A DNA stretch of 64,000 bases. It comes from Candidatus Firestonebacteria bacterium RIFOXYD2_FULL_39_29 (GTDB lineage: Bacteria > Oederibacteriota > D2-FULL-39-29). A model generated the notes under the pieces. That model had not been told where the DNA came from. It did not search any database and was given only the letters and a program-made list of their open reading frames with translations. The position numbers and the translations under genes are program-made. Of the stretch, positions 4,666 to 32,860 are shown piece by piece (the first letter of the stretch is position 1; each line of letters opens with the position of its first letter). The stretch is from positions 858-64,857 of the forward strand of contig MFGV01000084.1 in the NCBI GenBank assembly GCA_001778375.1. The letters are read 5' to 3'.

Positions 4666-4882
4666 TCCTGCTCCCGCCCCGGATAGAGGCAACAAAAACT
4701 ATTTTCTTAAGAATTCAAACCGCCTGATTTCATATCAGCAATTCATTATATTTTTCACGTCAAGCATTAACTTTGTAGTAAAGTATATCACTTTTCAGAA
4801 GAATGTCAATACTTTTTGAAGACAGGAAAATTACTGCAGTTACAGGAGGCGCATGTCTTTAGTCCGTATTAGACAGATAATA

Positions 4883-5506: not shown

Positions 5507-5538
5507 TTACTAGAAAAAGACTCCTCAAATGTAAACCT

Positions 5539-5566
5539 AGAACCAAGGACCCAGGGCCCAGAACCT
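5539..5566. repeat. Four in-phase degenerate heptamers AGAACCA AGGACCC AGGGCCC AGAACCT
   Basis: Read directly in the tonB-btuB spacer. Confidence 0.8.
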
Positions 5567-5577
5567 GCTCTTTACCG

Positions 5578-7404
5578 TTAGAACGTCAGTTTCACCCCCG
5601 CATTTAACGTTCTTCCCGGAAGCGGGTAGCTTTCTCTAAGTTCATAAACAGTATTCAAAATATTTTTCGCCGAGAAAATAAGCGTCACCTCTTTTATAAT
5701 CATAAGGTCTAATTTCGCATTTAAGGTAATAAAACTCGGGAGTGTTGTGACGGTACTTGCCTGTCTGACATCATAATATTCCGCATCTATTTTTAATTTC
5801 TGGCCAAGTAATTCATAGGCAACTCCAAGATTAGCTTTATTTTTTGGCCTGTATAAAAGTTCCAGATTTGTAATTTTATTTAAAGCCACCAGCCAGGTAT
5901 GTCCGGCAAACACATTGAGATTTTCAGCACATTTAATTTTAAGTTCTGATTCCACACCGTAGGTCTCTGCTTCTCCTACATTCGAGGGGGTCCAATCAAA
6001 AGAAGTCATATAGGTAGGATCTATAGGCGCCCAGTCTATAAGATCCTTTATCTGATTATTAAAATATGTAGTAGTTAAAATAGCAGACCTTCCGAACTCA
6101 AGATTTAAACCCGCTTCAAAAGAATTAGTTTTCTGCGGCAGTAACAAAGGATTCCCCGGCCCGCCCATAGCAGAAGTCGAATACAGTTCGGAAAAAGTCG
6201 GAGCTCTGAAAGAAGTGCCATAGGAGGTTCTTATCTGCACCCCGTCTTCAATATTATATACAAGCGCAAGCATTGGATTAAATGAATCACCATAAATAGA
6301 ATGACTGTCATAGCGCGCAGAAGCAGTAAATATCCAGGAACCGAGAAGATCGATTATATCCTGCGCAAAGCATGATTTTGTTGTGGCATTGTGGTCTCCC
6401 ATCCAATTTTGTTCATTCACACTATAATTGCCGCTTAAACCGATCGTAAATATATTAATTCCGCCAAAATCGTAAGTATAGGTTGTTTCGGTAAAAAAGT
6501 TTCTTTCTTCGCTCAAGGTAAAAATACCCGGCTGGAAAAAATTCAAAATACTTTTGCTCCCGTTTATTTTTACCCTAATATCGGAATCTTCGGTTAGAGG
6601 CAGGCGATAATCCACCCCGGCATTCAACCTTTCCATTTGCTGGCGGTCTAAGGGGGTCAACCAGAGCAAGGAACCGGGAGCACCGCTGTCGCTCTTGTAA
6701 GCCGTAAGGAGGGTTTTTAACGTATGATTTTTTGCAAAATCATATGAAAGTGAAAGACTCAGGTCATTGCTTAAAACATCACTATTCACCCTCTGACCGT
6801 TGGTAGCAAGATGCGAGCCTGAAAGATTCAAAGAAAGACCGCCCAGGTTATCTGAATATGAAGCCCTGAGGTCTTTAGTTGCAAACGAACCGTAAAAAGT
6901 TGAGATCTCCAGTGACCGTTTTTCTACACGGCTTTTAGTTATAATATTTATAACTCCGCCCGCCGCGTCCGCTCCGTAAAGCGAAGAGGCCGGACCCTTC
7001 AACACTTCAATTCTTTCTATGTTATCAAGAGGCAGCGAGGAAAAATCAACAAGGCCCTGATATGAAGAGTTTAACCTTACACCGTTTATAAGCACCAGAG
7101 TTCCTTCAGAGCCGATTCCACGGATCATAACGCTTTGCGTCTGTCCAATTGCTCCGACTTTTCCCGAGTCAACACCGGGAATCTCAGAAACTGCCAGACC
7201 TGCATTCTTATCCCCGCCGTTTGCAACTTTTGAATCATCAACTATAGCAAGCGAGCCGGGAGATTCCCTAAGCGCTTTTTCCACTCTGGAACCGGTAACA
7301 ACAATATCATCCAGCTGGAAAAACTCTTTTTCAGGTTTAACCGTGCCACTATCTTCCGCAAAAGCAGATACAGCAAGTACCAGTACGAGCAATAACTTTT
7401 TCAT
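5578..7404 (-). CDS. btuB: TonB-dependent outer-membrane receptor, BtuB-like (cobalamin/cobamide)
   Basis: Signal peptide, TonB box/plug (DDIVVTGSR..), 608 aa beta-barrel ending in ..GVKLTF. Sits in the riboswitch-controlled B12 operon. Confidence 0.8.
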   Translation of the reverse strand: MKKLLLVLVLAVSAFAEDSGTVKPEKEFFQLDDIVVTGSRVEKALRESPGSLAIVDDSKVANGGDKNAGLAVSEIPGVDSGKVGAIGQTQSVMIRGIGSEGTLVLINGVRLNSSYQGLVDFSSLPLDNIERIEVLKGPASSLYGADAAGGVINIITKSRVEKRSLEISTFYGSFATKDLRASYSDNLGGLSLNLSGSHLATNGQRVNSDVLSNDLSLSLSYDFAKNHTLKTLLTAYKSDSGAPGSLLWLTPLDRQQMERLNAGVDYRLPLTEDSDIRVKINGSKSILNFFQPGIFTLSEERNFFTETTYTYDFGGINIFTIGLSGNYSVNEQNWMGDHNATTKSCFAQDIIDLLGSWIFTASARYDSHSIYGDSFNPMLALVYNIEDGVQIRTSYGTSFRAPTFSELYSTSAMGGPGNPLLLPQKTNSFEAGLNLEFGRSAILTTTYFNNQIKDLIDWAPIDPTYMTSFDWTPSNVGEAETYGVESELKIKCAENLNVFAGHTWLVALNKITNLELLYRPKNKANLGVAYELLGQKLKIDAEYYDVRQASTVTTLPSFITLNAKLDLMIIKEVTLIFSAKNILNTVYELRESYPLPGRTLNAGVKLTF

Positions 7405-7422
7405 ATTAAAATCCTCCTATTT

Positions 7423-7529
7423 AATTACAATGACTATTGACTAATTACTAATGACTATTTAATGAGGATTATTATATATGCTGTTTACAGCTTCCTTAAA
7501 TAGTCATTAGTCACTAGTACTTAGTCATT
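7423..7529. repeat. Inverted-arm intergenic element, TAGTC-heptamer family, copy 1
   Basis: Left arm is AATTACAATGACTATTGACTAATTACTAATGACTATTT. Right arm is TTAAATAGTCATTAGTCACTAGTACTTAGTCATT, an imperfect reverse complement. The right arm includes the cobS stop codon. Confidence 0.8.
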
Positions 7530-8262
7530 AATATTTTAATTTTATTGCAAAAATTAACAAGGCTGCAACTTCCGTCACTTCCACCGTGAAACCGAAAATA
7601 TCTCCTGTAACGCCGCCAAGCTTATTTTTAAAGTATTTCATGATAATCAGCGCCGCTGCTGCCGCGCAGACAAAAGCAACAAGACCCCGCAGGCCGAAAA
7701 ACACTGAAAGAAGCAGGGCAAATGCAGTTATTATTATGAACTGCGTGTTTGTAATGTTTTGACAGTATACCTTCCCCATTCCGTACTTTTTAGCATAGGG
7801 AGAATATTTCATTAATATTGTCATGGAATATCTTCCCAAAACAGGGAAAAGTAATAATGCTGGATAAACATTGTAAAAGGAAAGTTTTATTATAATAATT
7901 ACTTTTAGAAGTAAAATAAAGGCTGCCCAGGCTGCCCCTTTTGCGCCGGTTGCGCTGTCTTCCATTATCCTGAAAATATCTTTTTTTGTTCTTCCGCCGT
8001 ATAAACCGTCTACCGTATCCGTAAACCCGTCAAGGTGCAGGGCTCCGGTTAAAAGCAGATATACACCGATAACAAGGACCGAAGGAAGCAAAAATACAAA
8101 TATTTTGCTGAAAACAAAATATGATAAGGCCAGCAAAGCTCCTATTATAAGTCCGACAAGAGGATAATAGGTAACCGATCCCGGGAGTTCATTTTGTTTT
8201 ATATTTTTTATTTTAAACGGAATATTTGTCAGGAACTGTAAAGCAATAAGAAAACTTTTCAC
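7528..8262 (-). CDS. cobS: Adenosylcobinamide-GDP ribazoletransferase (cobalamin synthase)
   Basis: 244 aa polytopic protein with the HLDGFTDTVDGL motif. 4-nt overlap with cobU. Confidence 0.85.
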   Translation of the reverse strand: MKSFLIALQFLTNIPFKIKNIKQNELPGSVTYYPLVGLIIGALLALSYFVFSKIFVFLLPSVLVIGVYLLLTGALHLDGFTDTVDGLYGGRTKKDIFRIMEDSATGAKGAAWAAFILLLKVIIIIKLSFYNVYPALLLFPVLGRYSMTILMKYSPYAKKYGMGKVYCQNITNTQFIIITAFALLLSVFFGLRGLVAFVCAAAAALIIMKYFKNKLGGVTGDIFGFTVEVTEVAALLIFAIKLKY

Positions 8263-8804
8263 TTCTTTACCTCCAGAGGGATCCCTGATACCAGAAAAAA
8301 CACCTTTGCTGCACGTTCTGCAAAAATACGGTTAACCCGGCCCTGAATATCCCTGAAATCCCGGCCCAGCTTATTATCCGGGACCAGTCCCATACCTACT
8401 TCATTTGAGACTGCGATAACTTCCGCTTTTGCACCGGCGCAATACTTTGCAATTTCTTCCGCCGACGTCAATATCTCTTTTTCTTTTTCCCCTTTCATCA
8501 TCCTATTCGACACCCAGAGAGTCAGACAATCAATAAGAATAACCCTGTTTTTTTTATCCCCGCTTTTTACAGACTTTAAAAGATCAAGAGGTTCTTCCAC
8601 AGTGCACCAGCCTTCCCCCCGCTGTTTTTTATGCCTCTTTATCCTTTTTTTCATCTCCTCATCCAACCCTTGCATGGTAGCAATATACACCCTGTCTTTT
8701 GCACTCTTTACAGCCAATTCCTCCGCAAAAGAAGATTTCCCGCTCCGCGCACCACCGGTGATGAAGGTTAAGCTACTTACTTGGGGCATACTCTTTGTTT
8801 CCAT
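8259..8804 (-). CDS. cobU: Adenosylcobinamide kinase / adenosylcobinamide-phosphate guanylyltransferase
   Basis: P-loop ITGGARSGKSSFAE, about 180 aa, in operon context. Confidence 0.85.
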   Translation of the reverse strand: METKSMPQVSSLTFITGGARSGKSSFAEELAVKSAKDRVYIATMQGLDEEMKKRIKRHKKQRGEGWCTVEEPLDLLKSVKSGDKKNRVILIDCLTLWVSNRMMKGEKEKEILTSAEEIAKYCAGAKAEVIAVSNEVGMGLVPDNKLGRDFRDIQGRVNRIFAERAAKVFFLVSGIPLEVKK

Positions 8805-8828
8805 GCAAAAGCTCCTGTACTGCCATGA

Positions 8829-8972
8829 AATTACTAATGACTATTGACTAATGACAATTTAATGAATACGGCAAAGTACCGCCGTAGCATTTAATAAAAC
8901 AATATATTTATGTAGGCGGAAAGCTTTTTTCCGCCATCCTAAAATAGTCACTAGTCATTAGTACTTAGTCAT
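8829..8972. repeat. Inverted-arm intergenic element, TAGTC-heptamer family, copy 2
   Basis: Arms are AATTACTAATGACTATTGACTAATGACAATTT and AATAGTCACTAGTCATTAGTACTTAGTCATT. The interior carries hairpins ACGGC-N8-GCCGT and GGCGG-N11-CCGCC. Confidence 0.85.
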
Positions 8973-8973
8973 T

Positions 8974-10017
8974 CTATTTATTACTCACTCCTGCACTTTC
9001 AAACGTTGCCATTTCATTCAGGATCTTCACCGCCGCTTCAATAATACTCATAGAAAGCGCCGCGCCGGTACCTTCTCCGAGCCGGAGCTCAAGGTTTAAT
9101 ATCGGCTTAAGCTTTAAATGCTCCAGAGCAAATTTATGTCCGTTTTCTACGGAATTATGAGAGGCAATTATATATTCACCGGCTTTCGGTTCTATACCCA
9201 CTGCGATAAGTGCGGCCGCTGTTGAAATAAAGCCGTCAATCACCACCGGTACTTTTCTCATGGCTCCGCCGAGTATCACTCCTGCAAGCCCGCCTATTTC
9301 AAATCCCCCGACCTTAGAAAGAACATCTATCGCATCCCTACGGTCCGGCTTATTAACCGCTATTCCCTTTTCGATCAGCGCTATCTTATTTGCCAAACCT
9401 TTATCATCAATTCCTGTTCCCCGGCCTGTCACTTCTTTCACTGCTTTCCCCGTATATATGGAAGTAATCGCCGCGCTAGGGGAGGTATTTCCAATTCCCA
9501 TATCCCCAGTACCGATAATATCCAATTCTTTCTCTATAAAGACAACATCAATACCTGCTTCTATACTTTTAAGAGCGTCTTCCCTAGTCATCGCAGGACC
9601 TGACGTAAAACTTTTTGTTCCCATACCGATTTTCTTATCAACCAACCCTTTTATTCCTTTAAAATCATAATTAACACCCATATCTACAATGATAACCTTC
9701 GCTCCAACATGCCTGGCAATAACATTTATTCCCGCCCCGCCGTTTAAAAAGTTAAGCACCATTTGCGGGGTTACTTCCATAGGATAGGCTGACACTCCTT
9801 CCCTCGCAATCCCATGATCTCCTGCCATAGTAAATATAACTTTATTATTTAATACCGGATTCTTCTTTCCGCTTATAGCTACAACTGTTTTCGCAATCTC
9901 CTCAAGCCGCCCCAGACTACTGAGAGGTTTTGTAAGAAAATCCAACCGTTTTTGCGTAGCTGACAGCAGGTTCTTGTCTGTACCGGATATCTTTAGTTCA
10001 TGTTTACCTATTTTCAT
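8974..10017 (-). CDS. cobT: Nicotinate-nucleotide--dimethylbenzimidazole phosphoribosyltransferase
   Basis: 347 aa with DMGIGNTSPSAAI and GEGTGA motifs typical of CobT. Confidence 0.9.
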   Translation of the reverse strand: MKIGKHELKISGTDKNLLSATQKRLDFLTKPLSSLGRLEEIAKTVVAISGKKNPVLNNKVIFTMAGDHGIAREGVSAYPMEVTPQMVLNFLNGGAGINVIARHVGAKVIIVDMGVNYDFKGIKGLVDKKIGMGTKSFTSGPAMTREDALKSIEAGIDVVFIEKELDIIGTGDMGIGNTSPSAAITSIYTGKAVKEVTGRGTGIDDKGLANKIALIEKGIAVNKPDRRDAIDVLSKVGGFEIGGLAGVILGGAMRKVPVVIDGFISTAAALIAVGIEPKAGEYIIASHNSVENGHKFALEHLKLKPILNLELRLGEGTGAALSMSIIEAAVKILNEMATFESAGVSNK

Positions 10018-10034
10018 TTATACTCCTTTAAAAT

Positions 10035-10152
10035 AATTACAAAGTACGAATTACAAACTACAATATATGGTGTTATATACATATTTATTAAATATTGCGG
10101 GAGCTTTTCCCGCATTCATAAAATTGTCAATTGTCATTCGTCAATCGTAATT
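10035..10152. repeat. Intergenic element with heptamer arms and a conserved core hairpin
   Basis: Left arm is AATTACA AAGTACG AATTACA AACTACA. Core is TAAATATTGCGGGAGCTTTTCCCGCATTCATAAAAT. Right arm is TGTCAAT TGTCATT CGTCAAT CGTAATT. Confidence 0.85.
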
Positions 10153-10157
10153 TTTTT

Positions 10158-10691
10158 TTAGTACTCTATTCCTTTCCTTGCCGACACCCCTTTATCATAC
10201 GGGTGCTTTATTGCTTTCATTTCTGTTACCATATCGGCGGTTTTTATTATTATTTTTGAGGCATTTCTTCCGGTCAAAACCAGTTCCGTTGTTTTTGATT
10301 TGTTTTTTATTAAATTCAACAGCTCTTTTTCGCTTATTAATCCTCCAAAAACACAATTACTTATTTCATCCAGGATAACCAGATCGTATTTCCCGTTCTG
10401 ACTTGCATCTATTGCTGCATCGAACAGAAGTTCCGCATTCATTTTAAGTTCTGTCAAAGAAATATTTTTATCGAACATCGGATGCGTTTGGTCATTTCTG
10501 AATATTTTAACATTCTTAAATTTCTTAGAAAGCACAAGCTCTCCGGTTTTATTTCCGTTTGCTTTTAAGAATTGAAAGATTGCGATCTTAAAACCATTCC
10601 CGGCCGCCCTAAGCGCCAGACCGAAAGCCGCAGTGGTTTTTCCTTTCCCTTCCCCAGTATATATTTGAACCAGCCCCTTTTTTAATTTCAT
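10158..10691 (-). CDS. cobO: Cob(I)yrinic acid a,c-diamide / cob(I)alamin adenosyltransferase (CobA/CobO/BtuR type)
   Basis: IYTGEGKGKTTAAFGLALRAAG P-loop, 177 aa, 4-nt overlap with the upstream ATPase gene. Confidence 0.85.
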   Translation of the reverse strand: MKLKKGLVQIYTGEGKGKTTAAFGLALRAAGNGFKIAIFQFLKANGNKTGELVLSKKFKNVKIFRNDQTHPMFDKNISLTELKMNAELLFDAAIDASQNGKYDLVILDEISNCVFGGLISEKELLNLIKNKSKTTELVLTGRNASKIIIKTADMVTEMKAIKHPYDKGVSARKGIEY

Positions 10692-11440
10692 AGCAACACA
10701 TTCCCCTTTATCAGATTTACGTTAACGCCATAGACATCTTTTATTATTTTTCTCGTAACTACTTTTTTTGCCGTTCCTTCCGTATAGATCCTCCCCTTTT
10801 TTAAAAGTACCAGCTTTTTGCAGTATTTCGAAGCAAGATTAATATCATGAGAAATCATAATTACCGTTATTTTTACATTTTCATTCAACTTTTTTACAAG
10901 TTCAAGAATATCATACTGATGATTGATATCCAGATGACTTGTCGGTTCATCCAGTAAAAGGACTTTCGGCATTTGCGCTAAGGCGCGGGCAATAAAAACC
11001 CTCTGCCTTTCCCCGCTGCTTAATTCATCAATGTTCCTGTCTTTAAAGCGTGAAATATCCGCAAGCTTCATCGCGGAATTAACAATATCAACATCCTCTT
11101 TCCCTTCCCAGGAAAACCTTTTAATGTACGGAGAGCGCCCCATCATCACAATTTCAAATACCGTAAACGGAAATATAATTGTTTCATCCTGCGGGACCAT
11201 AGCAATATTTTTGGCAACAAACCCGGTATCCAGTTTAAATATATCCTGACCTTTGAAAAACACATTCCCTGCTCCGGGTTTTAACCCTCTGCAAAGCATT
11301 TTAAGAAGTGTTGTTTTACCCGAACCGTTAGGCCCTATTATCCCGATAAAATCAGCTTCTTCAACAGAGAGATTGATATTATTCAACACCTGCTTTTCCC
11401 CGTAGCCGAACGTTATGTTTTTTGCTTCAAGTATTTTCAC
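10688..11440 (-). CDS. btuD: ABC transporter ATP-binding protein (BtuD/FepC-like)
   Basis: Walker A GPNGSGKTT, signature LSSGERQRV, Walker B LLLDEP. Start re-set to a GTG overlapping the btuC TGA (GTGA). The longer track ORF would overlap btuC by 100 nt. Confidence 0.85.
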   Translation of the reverse strand: MKILEAKNITFGYGEKQVLNNINLSVEEADFIGIIGPNGSGKTTLLKMLCRGLKPGAGNVFFKGQDIFKLDTGFVAKNIAMVPQDETIIFPFTVFEIVMMGRSPYIKRFSWEGKEDVDIVNSAMKLADISRFKDRNIDELSSGERQRVFIARALAQMPKVLLLDEPTSHLDINHQYDILELVKKLNENVKITVIMISHDINLASKYCKKLVLLKKGRIYTEGTAKKVVTRKIIKDVYGVNVNLIKGNVLL

Positions 11441-12459
11441 TTTTTCCTCTTTAAAAGATACAAAAATAACGGACCGCCTAAGATCGCGGTAACCACTCCT
11501 GTAGGTATTTCTGACGGTGCTATTACGCTCCTGCAAAGCGTATCCGAGAGAATTAAAAATATTCCACCGAGGAGTGCAGAGACCGGTATAAGAATACGGT
11601 GATCCGGCCCGACGATCATCCTTGCTATATGAGGAATTATCAGACCTACAAAACCAATCAGGCCGCTTACGGATACGGCAAGAGCCGTGAGCATAGAAGT
11701 CAGAACAAAGAGCATTTTTTTTACTTTTTCGGTTTTTACTCCAAGAAAAACCGCAGTTTCTTCTCCAACAGCAATAATATTCAGATCATTGCTGAACATG
11801 TAGATGACAAACATTAAAAGCAAGGCGACCGGGGTAATATAAGGAAGCAGATCATAGTTCGTATTATTTAAAGTACCCATCATCCAAACCACCACTTCTG
11901 CAAGTCCTTTATTTGAAACTGTGATAATAAGCATTATAAGAGCAGAAAAAGAAAAGTTAATAATAACCCCTGAAAGAAGTAATGTGTGTAAAGAGATCTT
12001 CCCTTTATTCCGGGCCAGACCATACACTAAGAACATTGATAAAAGCGCACCTGCAAACGCGGCAAAAGGGACTACAGGAACTCCAAAGAAGAAAAACGGC
12101 AAACTTGAAAGTATTATAATAGCAGCTCCAAGCGCCGCACCGCTTGAAACCCCTAGAAGATAAGGATCCGCAAGCGGATTTTTAAGAAGACCCTGAAATA
12201 CCGCGCCTGAGACCGAAAGTGAAGCACCGACTAAAAGAGCCAGCAAAACCCTGGGTATCCTGACTTTAAAAAGTATATCAGAGATAGTTTCATCCCAGGT
12301 AACAGGAATATACCCGCTGACTGCCGGTATTTTAGAAAGCATTATCTTAATTGCCGCACCCGGCTCAATAAAAACACCGCCTATAAATATCCCAAGGAAA
12401 ACACTCGAAATTAAAAGTATTATTCCAAGCAGTATGTAAGTTTTAAATCTATTTTTCAT
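11437..12459 (-). CDS. btuC: FecCD-family ABC permease (BtuC-like)
   Basis: About 340 aa with 9-10 TM helices and the typical FecCD C-terminus (GVVTAILGGPLFLYLL). Start set at ATG 12459; the track start is a GTG lying inside a dispersed repeat. Confidence 0.85.
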   Translation of the reverse strand: MKNRFKTYILLGIILLISSVFLGIFIGGVFIEPGAAIKIMLSKIPAVSGYIPVTWDETISDILFKVRIPRVLLALLVGASLSVSGAVFQGLLKNPLADPYLLGVSSGAALGAAIIILSSLPFFFFGVPVVPFAAFAGALLSMFLVYGLARNKGKISLHTLLLSGVIINFSFSALIMLIITVSNKGLAEVVVWMMGTLNNTNYDLLPYITPVALLLMFVIYMFSNDLNIIAVGEETAVFLGVKTEKVKKMLFVLTSMLTALAVSVSGLIGFVGLIIPHIARMIVGPDHRILIPVSALLGGIFLILSDTLCRSVIAPSEIPTGVVTAILGGPLFLYLLKRKK

Positions 12460-12474
12460 TTTACCTTTTGAAAA

Positions 12475-12520
12475 CGATTCCACTTCCGCCAGTTATATAG
12501 GGCGGATCTCTCGAAGAGAT
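12475..12520 (+). repeat. CCGCC-hairpin dispersed repeat, copy R1 (variant 5' end)
   Basis: CGATTCCACTTCCGCCAGTTATATAGGGCGGATCTCTCGAAGAGAT, near-identical to 22609-22654. Confidence 0.8.
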
Positions 12521-12535
12521 TGCAACTACAAATCA

Positions 12536-13366
12536 TCAAATATATTGCTCCAATAGTTTTTTTGTTATCTCTCGTGTTTTCTGCACTTCTCTCCGTCTTT
12601 GTTTTTCCGTTATTGCGATATCCTTCATGTGCGGTTTAAGTTCAAGTGTGGCCACGCAGCCTTTCGCAAGCTTCTTTGAATCTTTCAATATTTTAAAAAC
12701 CTCAGCATAATCCATATTTCCTCTCCCTAAAGGGAGGTGCGAATCTTCTTCGCCGTTGTTGTCATGGACATGCAGCTCGACAACGGAAAGCGGCAGCGAG
12801 TTGATATACTCGGAAATATTTTCTTTATCAATAAGTCCTTTTTTTACCGCAATATTCATATGCCCGAGGTCTAAAAGAATCCCGAGCCGCTTTGACTTTA
12901 TCGCTTTACTTATTTTTTGAAAATCAGAGATCTTTGAATTAACTGTCCAGTTTTCAATACCTACTTTAACTCTTGAGATATTCTTTAGAGTAAATTTGAG
13001 CGCCTTTATCGTATTATTCGCATTATAAACCACATCATGCCTTTCCCCAACTTCATCAAAAGCAGGGTCAAAACAGATATTTAAAACATGTTTTTCCATT
13101 TTGTTTCTTTTTATAAAACCTTTAATGTTATCCAGTCTGGTTTTCAGATCTTTTAAAAACCTTTTTTTTTTCATGGAGAAGAACGCCAGATGAAAAGTAA
13201 CAACTAATTTATTTTTCTTTATCGCCTCCGCAACGGCTTTTTCACTTGCATCTTCAAAGGAACTACCTAAAAAACTAATGGACGTAAATCCCATTCCGGC
13301 TAAATGGTCAATTGTATTAATAATGGACTTTTTTCGTATGTTCCAGATAGCGATACCAATCTTCAT
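12536..13366 (-). CDS. Xylose-isomerase-like TIM barrel / AP endonuclease 2 family protein; candidate CbiR-type cobamide-remodelling phosphodiesterase
   Basis: Fold-family motifs GILLDLGHMN and ELHVHDNNGEEDSHLPLGRGNMDY. It is the first gene after the cobalamin riboswitch. The CbiR assignment is by context and superfamily only. Confidence 0.55.
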   Translation of the reverse strand: MKIGIAIWNIRKKSIINTIDHLAGMGFTSISFLGSSFEDASEKAVAEAIKKNKLVVTFHLAFFSMKKKRFLKDLKTRLDNIKGFIKRNKMEKHVLNICFDPAFDEVGERHDVVYNANNTIKALKFTLKNISRVKVGIENWTVNSKISDFQKISKAIKSKRLGILLDLGHMNIAVKKGLIDKENISEYINSLPLSVVELHVHDNNGEEDSHLPLGRGNMDYAEVFKILKDSKKLAKGCVATLELKPHMKDIAITEKQRRREVQKTREITKKLLEQYI

Positions 13367-13396
13367 TGAGTCAATTTTCCTTTCTTAAAATAATTT

Positions 13397-13482
13397 TGTC
13401 ATTGCGAAACCTGCCTTTTGGTTGAAGCAATCTCGTTTTTTTATAGATTGCTTCGTCGTAAAAACTCCTCCTCGCAATGACA
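13397..13482. repeat. Nested palindromic element in the riboswitch-to-gene leader
   Basis: Outer arms TGTCATTGCGA (13397-13407) / TCGCAATGACA (13472-13482). Inner arms GAAGCAATCT (13424-13433) / AGATTGCTTC (13445-13454). Confidence 0.75.
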
Positions 13483-13487
13483 GAGCC

Positions 13488-13534
13488 CCAAATAAAAATG
13501 CACCTGCTTGTATTTTCACATACAAGCGAGGTGC
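13488..13534 (-). terminator. Intrinsic terminator, likely the riboswitch expression platform
   Basis: The minus strand reads GCACCTCGCTTGTATGTGAAAATACAAGCAGGTGC followed by ATTTTTATTTGG. Confidence 0.65.
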
Positions 13535-13589
13535 ACCCGTTCTAACTTGGCCCGCTAATTAAAAAACCGTTTATCCTTTGTTCCTCGAA

Positions 13590-13760
13590 GGAGACGGTGA
13601 TTCATTTTACGGTAAGGTTTTCTGGCTCGAAGGTCCAACCTACTCTTCCGCCTTCCCGTCCGCCGGAGGCGAGACAGTGGCTCTGGAATTTCGTTCCTTC
13701 TTACAGCACCGGGAGTGCGCCGGATTCACACCGGCTTCCCTACACCGCAAAACAACTACG
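13590..13760 (-). promoter_or_regulatory. Cobalamin (AdoCbl-type) riboswitch aptamer
   Basis: The minus strand reads GGGAAGCCGGTGTGAATCCGGCGCACTCCCGGTGCTGTAAG..GCCACTG..GGGAAGGCGG..GAGCCAGAAAACCTTACC. This matches the conserved GGGAA-GGTG-AA-CC, GCTGTAA, GCCACTG, GGGAAGGC and B12-box blocks. Confidence 0.9.
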
Positions 13761-13765
13761 CTTGT

Positions 13766-13794
13766 ATTCTAGCCAACATAATATTTTTTGTCAA
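13766..13794 (-). promoter_or_regulatory. Sigma-70-type promoter for the riboswitch operon
   Basis: Minus strand TTGACA (13794-13789), 17-nt spacer, TAGAAT (13771-13766), just upstream of the aptamer. Confidence 0.6.
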
Positions 13795-13833
13795 TACAAT
13801 TTTATAATTTTATAAATAAAGCAAGCGCAAACT

Positions 13834-13918
13834 GTAGTTGCCTGATTTATCAGGCGCTCGATTAATCGAGCAACTACAATATATATTGTTACTATAAATA
13901 TTTTCGGCTTTTGGCACA
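13834..13918 (+). repeat. GTAGTTGC three-stem element, copy 1
   Basis: GTAGTTGC [CCTGATTTATCAGG] CG [CTCGATTAATCGAG] CAACTAC, then AATAT...CTTTTGGCACA. The homolog is at 45731-45841. Confidence 0.75.
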
Positions 13919-13947
13919 TCCACATAAGCCTGAGGGATGTTCATATT

Positions 13948-14709
13948 TTATAGAACCATCAATACAATAGTTCCCATTATAAGCAAATATATGGAAAAAT
14001 AATGGAGTTTTTGTTTTTGGATGATATTTACGAGGAGCTTTGTGCAGAAGAAGCCGGTTATCGCGGCAACTAAAAGGCCTGTCAGGTAGACGGATATATC
14101 AATATTGACCATATCTGCTTTTGTTAGATGCCTTGTTTCTATTACTGCGGCTCCCAAAACAGCAGGAATGGAAAGGAGAAAGGAGAACTCAGCCGCAAAC
14201 TTCCTGTCAAGCTTTGCAAATAGACCTGCTGATATAGTGGAACCGGATCTGGAAATTCCCGGGATTATCGCGATACCCTGGATAAGCCCGACAAATAAAG
14301 CATTAAGCCAGGTCATTTCTTTTTCTGTTTTATTGCCGGTTTTTACCCTTCCTGCAAATAATAATATTATTGCAGTGCCAATAAGCGCCGCTCCGACTAG
14401 TTTTACATCGGTGAACATTTTTTCAAAAACATCTTTAAATGCAACACCTATGACACCGGTTACCGCTGTGGCAGTAAGGACCAGCATCAGCAGTTTTATA
14501 TTTTTAAATATCTCAACTATCCGTTTTCTAAAATATATCACAACCGCAAGGGCCGTACCCAGGTGAAGCGTCACATCAAACAGTATTCCCGGCTGGGAGA
14601 AGTTCTTAAATAAACTTTGTATCACAACAAGATGCCCCGAGGAGCTCACAGGGAGAAACTCTGTGAGACCCTGAACTATTCCGAGAATGATGGATTCAAG
14701 CAGTGTCAT
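13948..14709 (-). CDS. uppP: Undecaprenyl-diphosphate phosphatase
   Basis: GIVQGLTEFLPVSSSGHL and PGISRSGSTI motifs, 253 aa polytopic. Confidence 0.9.
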   Translation of the reverse strand: MTLLESIILGIVQGLTEFLPVSSSGHLVVIQSLFKNFSQPGILFDVTLHLGTALAVVIYFRKRIVEIFKNIKLLMLVLTATAVTGVIGVAFKDVFEKMFTDVKLVGAALIGTAIILLFAGRVKTGNKTEKEMTWLNALFVGLIQGIAIIPGISRSGSTISAGLFAKLDRKFAAEFSFLLSIPAVLGAAVIETRHLTKADMVNIDISVYLTGLLVAAITGFFCTKLLVNIIQKQKLHYFSIYLLIMGTIVLMVL

Positions 14710-14722
14710 ATTAACTCCAATA

Positions 14723-14925
14723 ACTAAGATTTAAGCACTAAATTCTAAACAATCACTAAGACTTAAATTCTAATCACTAAACTAAACCGTTGTAAGATAT
14801 TTATTTTTTTGTTGACAATATGTTTCAATGATTTTGTTTATCTCGCTATGGAAACGAATGTTTTCATCTATATATATTTCTAATCGAGAAAAGCTCTGCT
14901 TAAAATTTAGTGCTTAAATCTTAGT
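14723..14925. repeat. MITE-like element with perfect 21-bp terminal inverted repeats (TAAGCAC-heptamer family)
   Basis: ACTAAGATTTAAGCACTAAAT (14723-14743) is the exact reverse complement of ATTTAGTGCTTAAATCTTAGT (14905-14925). The element fills the gltX-uppP spacer. Confidence 0.85.
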
Positions 14926-14936
14926 AATTCACAATC

Positions 14937-16373
14937 TTAAAATATTTTAAGATTGGCCTCCATTCTCTTAATGCATTCTGCTGAGCCCAGGGCGGGGAGG
15001 ACATTTGCAAGCTCTTCACCGTGTTCTGCGCCGGTAATGGCGATACGGATGGGCATAAACAGGTCTTTGCCTTTTACTCCTGCTTTTTTTCCGGCTTCGG
15101 CAATGAGCGCTTTACAGTTTTCCTTGGTTATCTCCGTTGCTTTCAAAACTTCAATGAAGGCATTAATAGTCGCAGCGGCATTATTTATTCCGCTCCAAAC
15201 GTTTACGGCAACCTGATCAACGGCTTTTGCTTCAGTAAAAACGGAAGCAAGCTCGGGGATCATATTAAAGGATTTAACACCCGTCTTTATTTTAAGGAGA
15301 ACATCTTTCTTCCACTCTTCGCTCTTCTCGATCTTTGCAAGATACGGGAGAGCATGTTTCAGGTAAACTTCTTCCGGCAGTTTCATAATATATTCGTGGT
15401 TCATCCAGACAAGTTTCTTCTCGTCAAAAATAGAACCGGAATGTCCGACATCTTTAATATCAAAACTCTTAAATATCTCTTCTTTTGTTTTTATCTCCAC
15501 GCCGTCTTTCGGATACCAACCAAGAAGGGACATGTAGTTAAACATTGCTTCAGGCAAAAATCCTTTGTCGCGGTAAGCAAGAAGAGATGTTTCCCCGTGC
15601 CTTTTTGAAAGCTTGCTCCTGTCAGCGCCGAGGATCATGGAAAGATGCGCAAACTCCGGCAACGGAAATCCAAAAGCCTCATAGAGCAATACCTGGCGGG
15701 GTGTATTTGAAAGATGGTCTTCACCTCTGATAACATGCGTGATTTTCATAAGATTATCATCAATAACGACAGCAAAGTTATATATAGGTACTCCGTCCGA
15801 ACGGGCAATAACAAAATCCCCTATCTCTTTCGTGTTAAACTCCACAGGCCCTCTTACCAGGTCATCAAACTTTACGATAACATTTTCAGCTACTTTAAAC
15901 CTTACAACAAACCTTTCTTTCTTCGCAAGTTTTGCCTGTATTTCCTGTTCTGAAAGTTTTGTACATTTCCCGCTGTATTTATAAGGCATACCCGCCTTAA
16001 CGGACTTTTGTCTCTCAACTTCCACTTCTTCAGGAGAACAGAAGCAATAATAAGCCTTTTTCTCCTTTAAAAGCTTGTCTAAATACTCATTATATATAGA
16101 AAGCCGCTTCATCTGGGTATACGGCCCAAACTCCCCTTTTTCGTTATCAATTCCAAAATATCCTTCATCCCAATCCAACCCCAGCCACTTGAGCGACTCG
16201 ACTATGACTTTCACCGCTTCAGGCGTAGACCTCTCCTGATCAGTATCCTCTATCCTGAGAATAAACACCCCTTCGGTCTTTTTAGCAAAAAGATAATTAA
16301 AAAGCGCCGTCCTGGCATTCCCTATATGCATGTACCCCGTCGGAGACGGAGCAAAACGTACTCTGTTTGTCAT
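14937..16373 (-). CDS. gltX: Glutamyl-tRNA synthetase
   Basis: RFAPSPTGYMHIGNARTALFNY (HIGH) and KLSKRHG (KMSKS) motifs, 478 aa. Confidence 0.95.
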   Translation of the reverse strand: MTNRVRFAPSPTGYMHIGNARTALFNYLFAKKTEGVFILRIEDTDQERSTPEAVKVIVESLKWLGLDWDEGYFGIDNEKGEFGPYTQMKRLSIYNEYLDKLLKEKKAYYCFCSPEEVEVERQKSVKAGMPYKYSGKCTKLSEQEIQAKLAKKERFVVRFKVAENVIVKFDDLVRGPVEFNTKEIGDFVIARSDGVPIYNFAVVIDDNLMKITHVIRGEDHLSNTPRQVLLYEAFGFPLPEFAHLSMILGADRSKLSKRHGETSLLAYRDKGFLPEAMFNYMSLLGWYPKDGVEIKTKEEIFKSFDIKDVGHSGSIFDEKKLVWMNHEYIMKLPEEVYLKHALPYLAKIEKSEEWKKDVLLKIKTGVKSFNMIPELASVFTEAKAVDQVAVNVWSGINNAAATINAFIEVLKATEITKENCKALIAEAGKKAGVKGKDLFMPIRIAITGAEHGEELANVLPALGSAECIKRMEANLKIF

Positions 16374-16377
16374 TGGT

Positions 16378-16812
16378 TTATCCTTTTAAAATCTTCTTTA
16401 GTTTCTTCTTTATATCTTCAACTTGTTTCTCCGTCAGCTTTCCTTTTCTTACTTTTTCCGGAATCTGCCAAATGGGGAGTTTTTTGTATTTATCATTCTT
16501 ATATCTCGGTATTACGTGCCAGTGGATATGATGCGTGATGTTGCCGAGGTTCTCATAGTTAAACCTTTCAGGTTTGAAGGCTTTGTCTATTGCAGCCGTC
16601 ACCCGCATCATATCTTCGTACAAACATTTTTGAACCTTCATCGGGAGTTTATGTGTATGTTCTTTGTGACTTTTTGTAAAGAGAATACAATATCCTTTAA
16701 AATACTGCCCTTCTGCCAAAATTACGTAGGACTCTTTTAATTCTGCAATTATCGGACAGGGTACTTTCTTCTTATATTTTACGATAGCTTTGCAAAAAAA
16801 GCATTTCTTCAT
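16378..16812 (-). CDS. HIT-family nucleotide hydrolase/transferase
   Basis: Histidine triad HHIHWHVIPR, 144 aa, 4-nt overlap with ispF. Confidence 0.8.
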   Translation of the reverse strand: MKKCFFCKAIVKYKKKVPCPIIAELKESYVILAEGQYFKGYCILFTKSHKEHTHKLPMKVQKCLYEDMMRVTAAIDKAFKPERFNYENLGNITHHIHWHVIPRYKNDKYKKLPIWQIPEKVRKGKLTEKQVEDIKKKLKKILKG

Positions 16813-17309
16813 TTCTTAAACATCCATTTTCTTTTTCTGGTTAGATTTACTATTGCGTGGGCTTGCATCGCTTTTTGGGTGCCGATATCTCCGAGCCCTT
16901 TGGCAGTGGTGGCTTTTATAGAGACTTGTTCCGGTTCAATAGAAAGCATTTTAGCTATATTTTCTTTCATTTCCCCAATGTACTGGGAAAGCTTTGGCTG
17001 CTCTGTCATTATTACAGTATCAATATTTATAATTTTATAATCTTTTTTTAATTTGTTTCCGACATGCTGTAATAGAATCAAACTGGAAGCGTCTTTATTT
17101 TCCGGCCGGTCCACGCCGAATATGAGACCAATATCACCTTCATCCGCCGCGCCAAGCAAAGCATCAATTATTGCGTGACATAAAATATCCGCATCGGAAT
17201 GCCCGTCCAGTCCGAGATGAAACGGAATATGCACTCCGCCGAGAATAAGATTTCTACCGTGTTTTAGTTTGTGAATATCAATGCCAAGACCTACGAGATT
17301 TGTGGACAT
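16809..17309 (-). CDS. ispF: 2-C-methyl-D-erythritol 2,4-cyclodiphosphate synthase
   Basis: GIDIHKL..GHSDADILCHAIIDALLGA motifs, 166 aa. Confidence 0.95.
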   Translation of the reverse strand: MSTNLVGLGIDIHKLKHGRNLILGGVHIPFHLGLDGHSDADILCHAIIDALLGAADEGDIGLIFGVDRPENKDASSLILLQHVGNKLKKDYKIINIDTVIMTEQPKLSQYIGEMKENIAKMLSIEPEQVSIKATTAKGLGDIGTQKAMQAHAIVNLTRKRKWMFKK

Positions 17310-17323
17310 AATAACTCCTTATA

Positions 17324-17453
17324 AATAATGACTATTGACTATTTATTGTTGGCGGAGAGAAAACTTCCGCCTTCATAATATTGATATTTTTAAAATATTG
17401 CGGCGGCACTTTGCCGCATTCATTAAATAGTCATTAGTCACTAGTCATTAGTA
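17324..17453. repeat. Inverted-arm intergenic element, TAGTC-heptamer family, copy 3
   Basis: Arms AATAATGACTATTGACTATTTATT / TAAATAGTCATTAGTCACTAGTCATTAGTAC. Interior has GGCGG-N11-CCGCC and GCGGCGGCACTTTGCCGC, in the opposite order to copy 2. Confidence 0.85.
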
Positions 17454-17458
17454 CTTTC

Positions 17459-18145
17459 TTAGAAATAGCCCCTTAAAAGCAGCAGTATTATTTCCCCGTT
17501 AAATCCCGCAATTACCGGGACTAAAAGATTATCATCCAGCTTTTTCACTGCCGTTTCTACAACCGTGGCGGTGACTGCCATGACAGCAATAATAAGCCAC
17601 ATAGGGTCTCCCGCGGGAAGCCACCAACAAGTGTCCCACCACATTCTCCCGTTAACCGGCAGACGTAGAACCATAAAACCTATCAAAAAATCAACGGCTA
17701 ATTCCGCTAAAAATCCTTCCCATGCTTTTCCTTTTATATAAGGAAGGGGAGTCTTTCCAAATTTGGTCCCTACTAACGCAGCTGTCAAGTCTCCAAAAGT
17801 GACCATAAGAATACCGGCTGCAGCAATACGAAGATCAAAAATAGCCAGGGAAATAATAGACCCGAGCAAAAAGTATATTTCCGCGCCCATATGATGTTTT
17901 TCTTTGTCTCTTCTGTACTCCCAGAGTTTTCTAAGGAACGGAATTTTTGCGCCCACCTCTACTCTTGCATACTCAAGCTCGAAAAGAATTATCAACATGA
18001 AGGAAAGAAAGAGCAGGGCAACTTTATGATTGACCTCTTTTGAGACAAGGACATAGGCAATGAGGAAAATTACCGAAAAAAGGTGGATGGACTTTCTTAT
18101 TACTTCCTTCTTAAAACTCCATTTTTTTTCTTTTTTCATGACCAA
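17459..18145 (-). CDS. Polytopic membrane protein, CTP-transferase-1 family (dolichol/phytol-kinase or CdsA-like)
   Basis: 228 aa with 6-7 TM helices, RKSIHL near the N-terminus and GDLTAALVGTKFGK. Family-level call only. Confidence 0.5.
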   Translation of the reverse strand: MVMKKEKKWSFKKEVIRKSIHLFSVIFLIAYVLVSKEVNHKVALLFLSFMLIILFELEYARVEVGAKIPFLRKLWEYRRDKEKHHMGAEIYFLLGSIISLAIFDLRIAAAGILMVTFGDLTAALVGTKFGKTPLPYIKGKAWEGFLAELAVDFLIGFMVLRLPVNGRMWWDTCWWLPAGDPMWLIIAVMAVTATVVETAVKKLDDNLLVPVIAGFNGEIILLLLRGYF

Positions 18146-19033
18146 TCAGGCAACACTTACCGCATTTCTGCCGGCATGTTTAGACTTATACAGCGCTTTA
18201 TCCGCTTTTACAATAAGGCCCCTGCCGTCAATAATGGATTTATCCCAGCCGGCCACGCCGATAGAGAGCGTAACCCTGATGATCTGTCCCTGATAATGGA
18301 ACTTAGTCTGCGCAACAAACTGCCTCAGGCGGTCTCCCAGCCTCTTTGCGCTTTCAACATCGGAAATGGGGGCTATTATGGAAAACTCATCCCCGCCGTA
18401 ACGTCCGATAACATTGATCTTTCTTGTGTTTTTCCTGATAAGTTCAGAAACTTTTACCAGGATATAATCCCCTGCATCGTGGCCGAAAGTATCGTTAATT
18501 TTTTTAAAGTGATCCACGTCCACCATTAAAAGCGCAAGAAGTCCGCTGTACTTTTTAACTCTTTCCACTTCACGGTCCAGGAAGGTTTTAAAATACTTTT
18601 GCGTAAAAACATGAGTAAGCCCGTCTCTGGAAACTTCCAGCTTAAGCTGCTGTGTTTTTAACTGGGCTTCCGCCAGGTCTTTTTGTACTTCCCTTATTAT
18701 ATCTCCATAAGTAATAATGCCGACCAGCCGTTTATTTTCTATTATCGGAAGGCGCCTTATCCGCTTTGCCGCCATAAACTGCATCGCATCGCGGGTTTCC
18801 ATCTTGGGAGACATGGTAAAAACAGGCGCAATCATTATATCCGCCGCTTTTTTTTGCCCAAGCAAATTACACCCGTACTGGCCGATGAAACTCACGATAT
18901 CTCTTTCCGTGATGATCCCGAGCACCGTTTTATCTTTAACAATAACAACGGAGCCGATCTTATTCTTTTCCATAAGACGGCAGATCTCTTGTATTGATAT
19001 ATTTACCGGCGCAGTAATAACCGACCGGGACAT
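18146..19033 (-). CDS. CBS-pair + GGDEF diguanylate cyclase
   Basis: Two CBS-like modules then RYGGDEFSII and a KALYKSKHAGRN tail. Start set at MSRSVITAP (ATG 19033). Confidence 0.85.
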   Translation of the reverse strand: MSRSVITAPVNISIQEICRLMEKNKIGSVVIVKDKTVLGIITERDIVSFIGQYGCNLLGQKKAADIMIAPVFTMSPKMETRDAMQFMAAKRIRRLPIIENKRLVGIITYGDIIREVQKDLAEAQLKTQQLKLEVSRDGLTHVFTQKYFKTFLDREVERVKKYSGLLALLMVDVDHFKKINDTFGHDAGDYILVKVSELIRKNTRKINVIGRYGGDEFSIIAPISDVESAKRLGDRLRQFVAQTKFHYQGQIIRVTLSIGVAGWDKSIIDGRGLIVKADKALYKSKHAGRNAVSVA

Positions 19034-19127
19034 GATGTTAAGTATTTTCAAATTAACCCTCACAAAATAATAATTTATCCGTCCGCTGTAAGCGAGACGA
19101 GATCTCTCCAAAACTTTATTTTGGAGG

Positions 19128-19195
19128 ACAGTGTACAGTTTACAGTTTAAATATATTACGTGAGCAACGTGATAACGTGTAACGTTCTAACGTAT
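19128..19195. repeat. Heptamer arrays (GTACAGT x2; ACGTGAN block)
   Basis: CAGTGTACAGTTTACAGTTT..ACGTGAGCAACGTGATAACGTGTAACGTTCTAACG. Bases 19157-19190 match the reverse complement of 32861-32894 at 32/34 positions. Confidence 0.85.
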
Positions 19196-19196
19196 T

Positions 19197-20399: not shown

Positions 20400-20532
20400 T
20401 TTGCCCGCTATATACGGGTTTTTTGTAATTTTAACAATTTAGCCCTATTTTACAGTAAAAATAGCTGTATTTCAAGACCCGATATTCACTAAGGAAGGCA
20501 GAGATTCTGAATCAGAAAAGGGAAATGAAAAA

Positions 20533-21813: not shown

Positions 21814-21905
21814 TTTAACACTCCGTGTAGTTAGTTCATAAAGTTTATAAGGTTTTTAAAGTTTGTAAAGTTATTTTTAAAGGTAGCATTATATACTTTT
21901 TTACT

Positions 21906-22010
21906 CTCTGAGCCTCAGCTTCTTCGGCCTTTTGTCATCCGGCTTCTGGCCTCAGTCCTCAATTCTCTTTCGCTCTTACCGAGCCTCTGCGCATCTGAGC
22001 ATCCGCGCCT
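21906..22010. repeat. GC-rich heptamer array abutting the GNAT stop codon
   Basis: CTGAGCC TCAGCTT CTTCGGC CTTTTGT CATCCGG CTTCTGG CCTCAGT CCTCAAT ... GAGCCTC TGCGCAT CTGAGCA TCCGCGC CTCT. Related words occur at 53761-53795. Confidence 0.7.
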
Positions 22011-32831: not shown

Positions 32832-32860
32832 AATCTTCTCCTTGTTGTTGTTTGAAAACC

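Follow-up and report, generated by a model that had tools for sequence, protein, structure and literature searches.

A modular palindromic repeat with heptad arms in the intergenic spacers of Candidatus Firestonebacteria

The subject of this study is a group of inverted-repeat elements located between genes, in part within a vitamin B12 operon, in a 64-kb stretch of the genome of Candidatus Firestonebacteria bacterium RIFOXYD2_FULL_39_29 (hereafter the window, which means the whole stretch analysed). These elements belong to a previously undescribed, many-copy family of the Firestonebacteria, whose location differs between relatives. They are interpreted here, with moderate confidence, as a modular dispersed palindromic repeat similar to bacterial interspersed mosaic elements (BIMEs), to the doublets of repetitive extragenic palindromic (REP) sequences named REPINs, and to Correia elements, which would form an RNA stem of 24–31 bp in the operon transcript. 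A first-pass annotation of the window had described three full copies and one half copy (58324-58355), and all four loci are as it described. Judging by titles and abstracts, genomic repeats are not the subject of the literature that mentions Firestonebacteria.

The module and the full element

The unit from which these elements are built is a module of about 60–70 nt. Modules were collected with a nucleotide hidden Markov model built from the window copies, which was run with nhmmer against the window and against a set of Firestonebacteria-like contigs that came from a metagenome scan for ACTAATGACTAKTGACTA. Among the matches listed, 26 distinct modules were found in the window and these contigs, including a further copy in the window itself (32952-33013). 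The module consists of three to five degenerate heptads, a linker of 9 nt, a GC hairpin and an (A)ATATT tail. The heptads follow the consensus N-T-G/T-A-C-N-A, in which A4, C5 and A7 are invariant at 97–98% and variation is limited to positions 1, 3 and 6, and the order of the units within the arms recurs between loci. The commonest form of the linker is TTTAATGAA, which is present in 8 of the 26 modules. The hairpin, of 4–8 bp, starts exactly 14 nt past the last GACNA, and in 23 of the 26 modules this is column 15. A small open reading frame (ORF) starting from the ATG of TTTAATGAA was considered and dropped, because the ATG is lost in many copies of the linker (such as TTTAAGGAA and TTTATTGTT).

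A full element is made of two modules placed face to face. This is the arrangement of copies 2 and 3 of the window and of elements at several of the loci fetched from metagenomes (designated by L numbers): L126 3848-4009, L129 6733-6902, L109 6804-6965, L141 2011-2182 and L122 1-154. The arms, of 30–38 nt and 74–84% complementary, constitute terminal inverted repeats; the first arm starts at the upstream stop codon or a few bases from it, and the second finishes 8–40 nt short of the next start codon. The genes beside the three full copies and beside the lone arm that represents the half copy are all on the minus strand, which is taken as the sense strand of the elements. Copies 2 and 3 have two interior GC hairpins in common, as had been noticed before, and their order is swapped: the coordinates agree, and the arm, linker and GCGGC hairpin that span 8818-8898 match 17387-17467 at 83% in inverted orientation. 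From this flipped interior the first-pass annotation had deduced independence from orientation. The swap stands, but the independence is only apparent, because a face-to-face pair of modules reads the same on both strands, and lone modules are in the sense orientation in seven of seven cases, their arm following immediately on the upstream gene's stop codon.

Copy 1 occupies the cobS/btuB spacer (7405-7527), copy 2 the cobT/cobU spacer (8805-8973) and copy 3 the spacer (17310-17458) between an unnamed ORF (17459-18145), its 5' neighbour in the sense direction, and ispF (16809-17309), its 3' neighbour. All three have inverted arms of GACTAWT-type heptamers, and the parts described below are given on the minus strand. 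In copy 1, the sense 5' arm (F arm, 7501-7529), with the heptads TGACTAA, GTACTAG, TGACTAA and TGACTAT, begins at the cobS stop codon (7528-7530) and is followed by the linker TTTAAGGAA (7492-7500) and a short hairpin, GCTGTAAACAGC (7480-7491). The sense 3' arm (R arm), together with its mirrored linker (7429-7465), pairs with 7497-7529, to which it is 84% complementary, and in the predicted fold the Shine-Dalgarno sequence GGAGG beside it (at about 7413-7417) is unpaired. In copy 2, the F arm of four heptads (8945-8973) starts 2 nt after the cobT stop codon (8974-8976) and precedes the linker TTTTAGGAT (8936-8944) and the hairpin GGCGGAAA-loop-TTTCCGCC, of the form GGCGG-N11-CCGCC (8915-8935). 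The second hairpin, ACGGC-N8-GCCGT (8868-8885), is part of the mirrored module on the 3' side, whose linker (8858-8867) and R arm (8829-8857) lie upstream of the cobU start. In copy 3, the F arm of four heptads (17428-17455) is located 3–4 nt after the stop of the unnamed ORF and is followed by the linker TTTAATGAAT and the hairpin GCGGC-N8-GCCGC (together 17400-17427, with the hairpin at 17400-17417). Its mirrored module consists of the hairpin GGCGGA-loop-TCCGCC, again GGCGG-N11-CCGCC (17351-17371), and of the R arm with its mirrored linker (17321-17350), upstream of the ispF Shine-Dalgarno site; this R arm holds two full heptads in the window and four in the L122 ortholog.

The element at 10035-10152, which had been called related, does have the linker, the hairpin and the AATATT tail in common with the copies. 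On the minus strand, it comprises an F arm of TTACGA/TTGACA-type heptads after the cobO stop (10124-10152), the linker TTTTATGAA with the hairpin GCGGGA-loop-TCCCGC and then AATATTT (10097-10123), and an R arm of TTTGTAA/TTCGTAC heptads upstream of the cobT Shine-Dalgarno site (10035-10064), without a second hairpin. The lone module at 32952-33013 (minus), composed of TTACGA/TTGACA heptads, TTTAATGAA, GCGGA-loop-TCCGC and AATATT, directly follows the stop of gene 33024-34724. The half copy (58324-58355, minus) is a lone R arm that reads TAGTCAC TAGTCAT TAGTGCT TAGTACT in sense and lies just upstream of the Shine-Dalgarno site of gene 56826-58298. Over the whole window, the motif GACTAWT shows no excess (23 sites, with 16.3 ± 3.5 expected), and 13 of the 23 sites fall within the four named spacers, about 0.6 kb in total.

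Regarding the genetic context, NCBIfam matches confirm the names btuB (5578-7404), cobS (7528-8262), cobU (8259-8804), cobT (8974-10017) and cobO (10158-10691), all on the minus strand, as well as btuD and btuC. Copies 1 and 2, like the related element (spacer 10018-10157), are part of an operon headed by a cobalamin riboswitch identified with Rfam (13594-13764, minus), which is preceded by a consensus promoter (13794-13766), the only strong one in the region; within copies 1–3, no match to the promoter consensus at 10 or more of 12 positions was found. The elements had been placed between genes of the B12 operon, and this is correct for copies 1 and 2, but copy 3, beside ispF, lies outside it. 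At gathering scores, Rfam recognised the riboswitch and one tRNA only, with no match to the elements, and at E ≤ 1 the region 7300-10300 gave only a sub-threshold match to a microRNA hairpin (26 bits versus 104).

Copies, relatives and the wider set of heptad arrays

Eight modules or arms were counted in the window. In the contigs of four source metagenomes that cover 7000-10500, the arms reach about 4–7 times the depth of the flanks and are also where contigs end: 43 of 54 contigs of run X4 match only partly and continue into unrelated sequence, and in the other three runs 30–44 of 38–55 contigs match only partly. The depth and the breaks therefore point to dozens of further copies. The family explains the assembly breaks at intergenic spacers of Firestonebacteria and provides a marker for their genomes.

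The closest relatives of CobT, with 83–84% identity, are found only in Candidatus Firestonebacteria metagenome-assembled genomes, and the exact protein, together with the spacers, is also present in several groundwater assemblies, including GCA_001780345.1. In five other Firestonebacteria species, the spacers of the B12 operon also contain heptad arrays, but the units and the junctions differ, and the arrays often form inverse pairs. Empty sites exist in both directions: the cobT/cobU spacer of L004, of only 35 nt, is array-free, and in L122 (about 87% gene identity) an 82-nt module lies between ispF and the next gene, where the window genes overlap. The low-GC L005 has no heptad arrays at all in its B12 operon. 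In L200, a whole element is duplicated in tandem, and family members occupy different spacers in different species. A variant interior and a variant arm were also observed in an otherwise identical strain, L086, the scaffold of which contains Ns and may be a chimera of strains: the interior of its cobO/cobT spacer (2770-2940) differs, with heptads AGAAATC and AGTAAGA, despite an identical CobT protein, and so does the R arm of its cobS/btuB spacer (5431-5541).

The comparison with L122 also bears on gene ends. The window ispF (16809-16860 region, compared with L122 580-720) is 8 residues longer at the C-terminus (...RKRKWMFKK), and in L122 the gene stops at a TAA that shares bases with the first heptad of the inserted module. 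Arms with stop triplets in all frames may set gene ends, which is a warning for the annotation of gene 3' ends in these genomes. As a general reason for the existence of the arms, an all-frame stop cassette was rejected: it fits TGACTAA, but the GTACAAA and GGTTGGA arrays of relatives are stop-free.

Orthologous copies are well conserved. Copy 3 and its L122 ortholog are 0.878 identical over 139 nt, compared with 0.50–0.60 at fourfold-degenerate sites between the window and L122, and the changes concentrate in the hairpin loops, the AT-rich centre and the number of heptads. In the array spacer 14710-14936, about 80 nt before the Shine-Dalgarno site are near-identical to L122. A conservation so far above that of fourfold sites argues against neutral debris of slippage. 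The hairpin shows covariation as well. In a stem-anchored alignment, in which the 3' stem positions come from per-sequence folds, five of five stem pairs change on both sides; the double-change cells number 24, compared with 3.8 in shuffles (none of 500 shuffles reached 24), and the covariation score is 0.576 versus 0.172 in shuffles.

The TAGTC arms represent one flavour of a more general feature with a lag of 7 nt. Tandem units of about 7 nt are present in nearly every intergenic region of the window, and the units differ from place to place (families TTACGA/TTGACA, ACTAAGA/TTTAAGC, AACGTGA, GGTTCTG, GATGCGC, AACTTTA and AAACTGT). In the Firestonebacteria set, 34 lag-7 arrays were found in 21.6 kb of non-coding DNA versus 2 in 137 kb of coding DNA (15.7 versus 0.15 per 10 kb), and the rate in non-coding DNA of other phyla is 2.1 per 10 kb. 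The autocorrelation scan yielded almost nothing at lags 5, 6, 10 and 11 (0–1 at lags 5, 6 and 11). Ten window spacers hold two arrays each, and in six of them the arrays are inverse to each other. Among Firestonebacteria-like loci, a stringent lag-7 array is present in 29 of 78 co-directional and in 4 of 6 convergent spacers; in 17 of those 29 co-directional spacers the first array begins 0–11 nt past the stop codon, and in 21 of the 29 the last array ends 8–40 nt before the start codon.

Arrays of this kind are not restricted to this phylum. A metagenome scan for TGACTAN arrays revealed at least 117 loci (contigs L091-L207, with arrays of 3–13 TGACTAA, TGACTAG or TGACTAT units). Among the matches listed, 109 are not Firestonebacteria-like, with 24–69% GC and 3–13 units, and 15 of these 109 have an inverse partner within 250 nt. 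In two high-GC contigs, L114 and L189, tight inverse hairpins are located directly upstream of start codons.

Other repeats of the window were also recorded. Two AACGTGA-type arrays, at 19158-19192 and 32860-32894, show 94% complementarity over 35 nt; one follows a stop codon, the other precedes a ribosome-binding site, and a third copy is found at 53706-53732. The first two are 13.7 kb apart, and they are unlikely to be in one RNA because an opposite-strand gene and a transposase lie within that distance. The GGTTCTG, AAACTGT, AACTTTA, GATGCGC/GAGGCTC and CAGATGATT families, along with long inverse ACTAAGA/TTTAAGC pairs, fill other spacers (5536-5565, 19128-19148, 21834-21872, 21979-22009, 53761-53792, 54540-54571, 14710-14936 and 40270-40479). 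A conserved interior motif, AGCTTTTCTCGA...(small hairpin)...AGCGAGATAAA, is found in several species, where it turns up in unrelated spacers and in most cases lies between heptad arrays (window 14841-14895; L001 9789-9904; L002 8177-8416; L109 1167-1424; L141 4765-4970), and the similar AAGCTTTTCCCGATAGGAAATATAT is found within window 45230-45953.

A second palindromic family consists of ATCCGCC-N9-GGCGGA(T) hairpins in copies of 50–70 nt, 73–93% alike and in both orientations (12485-12507, 22619-22641, 22915-22938, 37331-37354 and 54600-54623), often flanked by GATGACACAGAT-type arms; one copy of this family lies inside the B12 operon, between a CbiR-like gene and btuC. In addition, a conserved element, GTAGTTGC...GCAACTAC, forms an outer stem around two small hairpins, CTCGATTAATCGAG and CCTGATAAATCAGG. 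It occurs in several Firestonebacteria species (window 13834-13877 and 45742-45798; L002 5759-5835; L004 5394-5456; L122 1149-1339; L141 4765-4970) and has no Rfam match at gathering score. Its GTAG/CTAC ends recall REP heads.

Folding of the spacers and competing explanations

The proposal that the arms, inverted arrays of GACTAWT heptamers, could fold into a long hairpin is borne out by prediction. Each spacer is predicted to fold arm to arm, with 24–31 long-range pairs and z-scores of -4.4 to -6.9 against shuffles. According to these models, the arms can zip into an imperfect stem of 24–31 bp, in which the interior hairpins are looped out and the Shine-Dalgarno sequence stays free; the latter is predicted to be unpaired in all four elements of the B12 region. 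The arm-to-arm stems contain 62 G-U pairs in the sense strand versus 37 in the antisense strand, the sense minimum free energy (MFE) is lower in 20 of 27 elements, and the stem of spacer 14710-14936 has 8 G-U pairs on the sense strand and 0 on the antisense strand. In favour of co-transcription with the operon, copies 1–3 hold no consensus promoter, and the hairpins of the modules have no U-tract. Finally, base pairing accounts for the many unrelated heptad families, each of which pairs with its own inverse, more simply than many binding proteins would.

In the mechanism proposed on these grounds, the spacers would be co-transcribed with the operon, and the element would spread by copy-and-paste or by conversion and be kept or tolerated since it folds back on itself. 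The stem would hold the stop codon and the next ribosome-binding site close to each other, and might act as a barrier to 3' exonucleases or as a site for a double-strand RNase. Different segments of the operon mRNA would thereby gain different stability.

Several observations weigh against this interpretation. Fold z-scores are equally strong on the antisense strand, and the folding of both strands, which had been suggested as a check, gave strong arm-to-arm stems on either; being symmetric, the folds favour neither an RNA nor a DNA element. As for the G-U pairs, their excess is small, is owed mostly to families other than TAGTC, draws in part on orthologous pairs, and could be caused by a strand-biased C-to-T mutation bias. 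Within the TGACTAA family, an F arm pairs as stably with the R arms of other copies as with its own R arm, which leaves selection for pairing on a fine scale unsupported, and the matching of arms at the level of the family could simply reflect insertion as a unit. Similarly, gene conversion among copies, and not function, could be the source of the high conservation. In the only three metatranscriptomes of the same study, all of them small, nothing matched 4500-20500. No mobilising enzyme was found, and the only Y1 transposase of the window is flanked by a different palindrome.

Some narrower ideas were abandoned. The strand cannot be called from folding, as both strands are equal in z and the sense MFE gain is partly compositional, and fine covariation within the arms was rejected by the own-arm test just mentioned. 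A 5'-3' panhandle, in which the arm upstream of a gene would pair with the arm downstream of the same gene, fits cobU-cobS only and fails for cobT, btuB and ispF-gltX, where the flanking arrays come from different families.

The heptad arrays in general could constitute a register-tolerant RNA zipper, in which an array at the stop codon pairs with its inverse before the next ribosome-binding site. This wider hypothesis is rather unlikely as it stands. A unit of 7 nt would be favoured under it because slippage keeps the pairing, and because a length that is not a multiple of three puts stop triplets in three frames. If it were true, the spacer would be looped out, and termination and re-initiation, or mRNA processing, would be coupled across 100–250 nt in Firestonebacteria, and the same might hold for other lineages that possess inverse heptamer arrays. 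It would also provide a function for the STRR-type heptamer repeats (see below), described 35 years ago.

Among the rival explanations, the strongest, itself doubtful, takes the heptad arms to be a periodic series of binding sites for a protein that is oligomeric or has several OB folds, for example a cold-shock-type or S1-type protein or a ring like those of HutP and TRAP. The 7-nt spacing would correspond to one subunit or domain per unit, and a switch between the arms and the GC hairpin would result in attenuation or translation control. Three near-invariant heptad positions at a fixed 7-nt spacing, with two freely variable ones, would suit such an array, although the recurring unit order indicates common descent of whole arms, which would be enough to account for the invariance. 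On the sense RNA, the R arm has the form (UAG-N4)n, a spacing that HutP sites also have. The lone R arms, which in keeping with a proposal made for the TAACTGA repeats of Beggiatoaceae (PMC4679880) lie just before Shine-Dalgarno sites, are consistent with protein binding, as is the fact that own arms are matched no better than arms of other copies. Nevertheless, the window contains at least eight heptad families that are unrelated to one another, each having an invariant core of its own, which would require many proteins, and both arms are nearly always of the same family and inverse to each other, which is expected from pairing or from insertion as a unit and not from independent sites.

It is less plausible still that the module is a factor-independent terminator or attenuator, so that a face-to-face pair would be a bidirectional insulator against sense and antisense read-through. 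The covarying GC hairpin just past the stop codon followed by AATATTT, the invariably sense orientation of lone modules after gene ends and the presence of modules between convergent genes would fit termination, and two modules pass a simple, lenient terminator scan. These two are the only ones to do so. The tail in RNA, (A)AUAUU(U), is a mixture of A and U and not a U-tract, whereas relatives do have canonical terminators with a hairpin and a U-tract (L109 2643-2923 and L129 2925-3131). Furthermore, three elements lie within an operon whose only consensus promoter precedes the riboswitch, and in the same operon of relatives the elements are at other junctions or missing, which is hard to square with efficient termination. 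Termination would also leave the heptad arms without a role. The family is dispersed and multi-copy, not a set of private terminators, and to this extent the first-pass annotation, which had argued against a strand-specific terminator, is supported.

The first-pass annotation had proposed a DNA element like a BIME or a miniature inverted-repeat transposable element (MITE). The first half of this proposal is sustained by a dispersed, multi-copy repeat of the BIME, REPIN and Correia kind, but the hallmarks of a MITE are missing. A classical MITE would be a deletion derivative of an insertion sequence (IS), with terminal inverted repeats and target-site duplications, mobilised by the DDE transposase of that IS. 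The inverted arms, the size of 120–170 bp, the many copies, the empty sites and the tandem copy all suit this origin, which is nonetheless improbable. No target-site duplication is visible outside the arms at 12 elements, although the fuzzy arm ends could hide a duplication of 2 bp, and the flanks are alike between copies, with a stop codon and GAA on the left and TATTT before the Shine-Dalgarno site on the right. No IS sharing the ends of the element was found in the window or in the fetched loci. Half elements, that is, lone modules and lone arms, are common and consistently oriented with respect to genes, and other heptad families share the architecture with different arms and interiors.

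A transposase gene of a different type is present in the window, at 27510-28082 (minus). It encodes a Y1 transposase (Pfam Y1_Tnp, E = 3e-18) similar to those of IS200 and to the REP-associated tyrosine transposases (RAYTs), with an HVHLIV motif, and is flanked on both sides by the 32-nt palindrome AAAGGGACAGTCCCTAAGGGACTGTCCCTTTT (27466-27497 and 28140-28171). This layout (27466-28171) resembles that of a RAYT gene with its own REP. There are no heptad modules beside the gene, and AAAGGGACAGTCCCTAAGGGACTGTCCCTTTT is absent from all 207 fetched loci. A link between the elements and this gene was therefore rejected, because the flanking palindrome is unrelated to them and is not dispersed in the fetched loci.

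The least probable explanation, that the arms are functionless heptanucleotide simple-sequence repeats generated by polymerase slippage and tolerated outside genes, draws on the frequency of heptanucleotides as the commonest class of long simple-sequence repeats in many prokaryotes (according to PMC4679880), on TGACTAN arrays in more than 100 metagenome contigs of 24–69% GC, on the varying unit number between orthologs (two versus four in the copy 3 R arm) and on the near absence of arrays from coding DNA, but it is at odds with the fixed pattern of degeneracy and the unit order common to different loci, with the union of the arms to a fixed linker and a covarying hairpin, with orthologous copies far more conserved than fourfold sites, with a placement that hugs stop codons and ribosome-binding sites, and with arms that pair with their inverse in the same spacer far above chance.

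Comparison with known repeat families

The nearest parallels in function are REPINs and Correia elements. REP and BIME elements and REPINs of enterobacteria and Pseudomonas are mobilised by RAYTs (PMC3337134, PMC3116915). The elements of the window resemble them in being short extragenic palindromic units, which in inverted pairs around a spacer give a long hairpin; in lying at the ends of genes and between genes that are probably co-transcribed, with what may be a similar copy number (tens to hundreds per genome in REP and BIME elements); in their vertical persistence and conservation; and in the presence of a Y1 (IS200/RAYT-like) transposase gene in the same window. On the other hand, the arms are four tandem degenerate heptads, whereas the known units are a single imperfect palindrome headed by a GTAG-type motif; heptads stand at the start of the arms, where no GTAG head is present. 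BIME linkers can also carry motifs for the integration host factor (IHF) or gyrase, and no IHF consensus occurs in the elements. Each unit has a fixed linker and its own small GC hairpin, and the RAYT-like gene is flanked by an unrelated 32-nt palindrome.

Correia elements (Correia repeat enclosed elements, CREE, or neisserial miniature insertion sequences, NEMIS) have a TA target duplication. According to PMC2649163, they are intergenic, of about 100–160 bp, with inverted-repeat ends and a conserved core, and are co-transcribed with their neighbours, to all of which the elements described here are similar, with co-transcription as a probable feature; in the same paper, RNase III is stated to bind their RNA hairpin and either to cleave it or to protect it, a role of the kind proposed above for the present elements. 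In contrast, CREE contain an IHF site and can create promoters, and neither feature, nor a target duplication, was seen in the present elements: no match to the IHF consensus WATCAANNNNTTR was found within any of them. Moreover, the ends of CREE are not heptad arrays, and they belong to another phylum.

The heptanucleotide repeats of cyanobacteria known as short tandemly repeated repetitive (STRR) sequences were reportedly described by Mazel in 1990. The unit TGACCAA, the complement of the cyanobacterial STRR2 unit TTGGTCA, is one base from TGACTAA, and several metagenome contigs contain arrays made up of both units. Heptanucleotide units form the most frequent kind of long simple-sequence repeat (LSSR) in many prokaryotes, for which slippage has been proposed (Mrazek 2007, as related in PMC4679880). 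STRR and LSSR share with the present arrays the tandem 7-nt units and the location in non-coding DNA. However, they are plain direct arrays, often long and perfect, whereas the arrays of the Firestonebacteria have 3–5 units with a fixed degeneracy pattern, are paired with an inverse copy and are fused to a linker and a hairpin.

Closer in placement are the TAACTGA direct repeats, which show a scattered distribution in marine Beggiatoaceae, some cyanobacteria and Bacteroidetes (PMC4679880). They also have two stop triplets per heptamer and form arrays of 2–6 units that are mostly intergenic and directly upstream of starts, although the two heptamers, TGACTAA and TAACTGA, cannot be converted into each other by rotation. 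In Beggiatoaceae, the repeats extend over the ribosome-binding region, and only one indirect repeat has been reported among them (PMC4679880). The arrays described here, unlike those, form inverse pairs, lie close to the upstream stop codon as well and keep clear of a canonical Shine-Dalgarno site.

In this way, two themes meet in one element of an uncultured phylum, that of small palindromic repeats and that of heptanucleotide arrays. REP, BIME, REPIN and Correia repeats are known mainly from Proteobacteria. To our knowledge, heptanucleotide arrays such as STRR and TAACTGA have had no accepted function since 1990. In the Firestonebacteria, a defined module, its placement at stop codons and ribosome-binding sites, covariation and conservation make the function of heptamer arrays testable with simple reporters.

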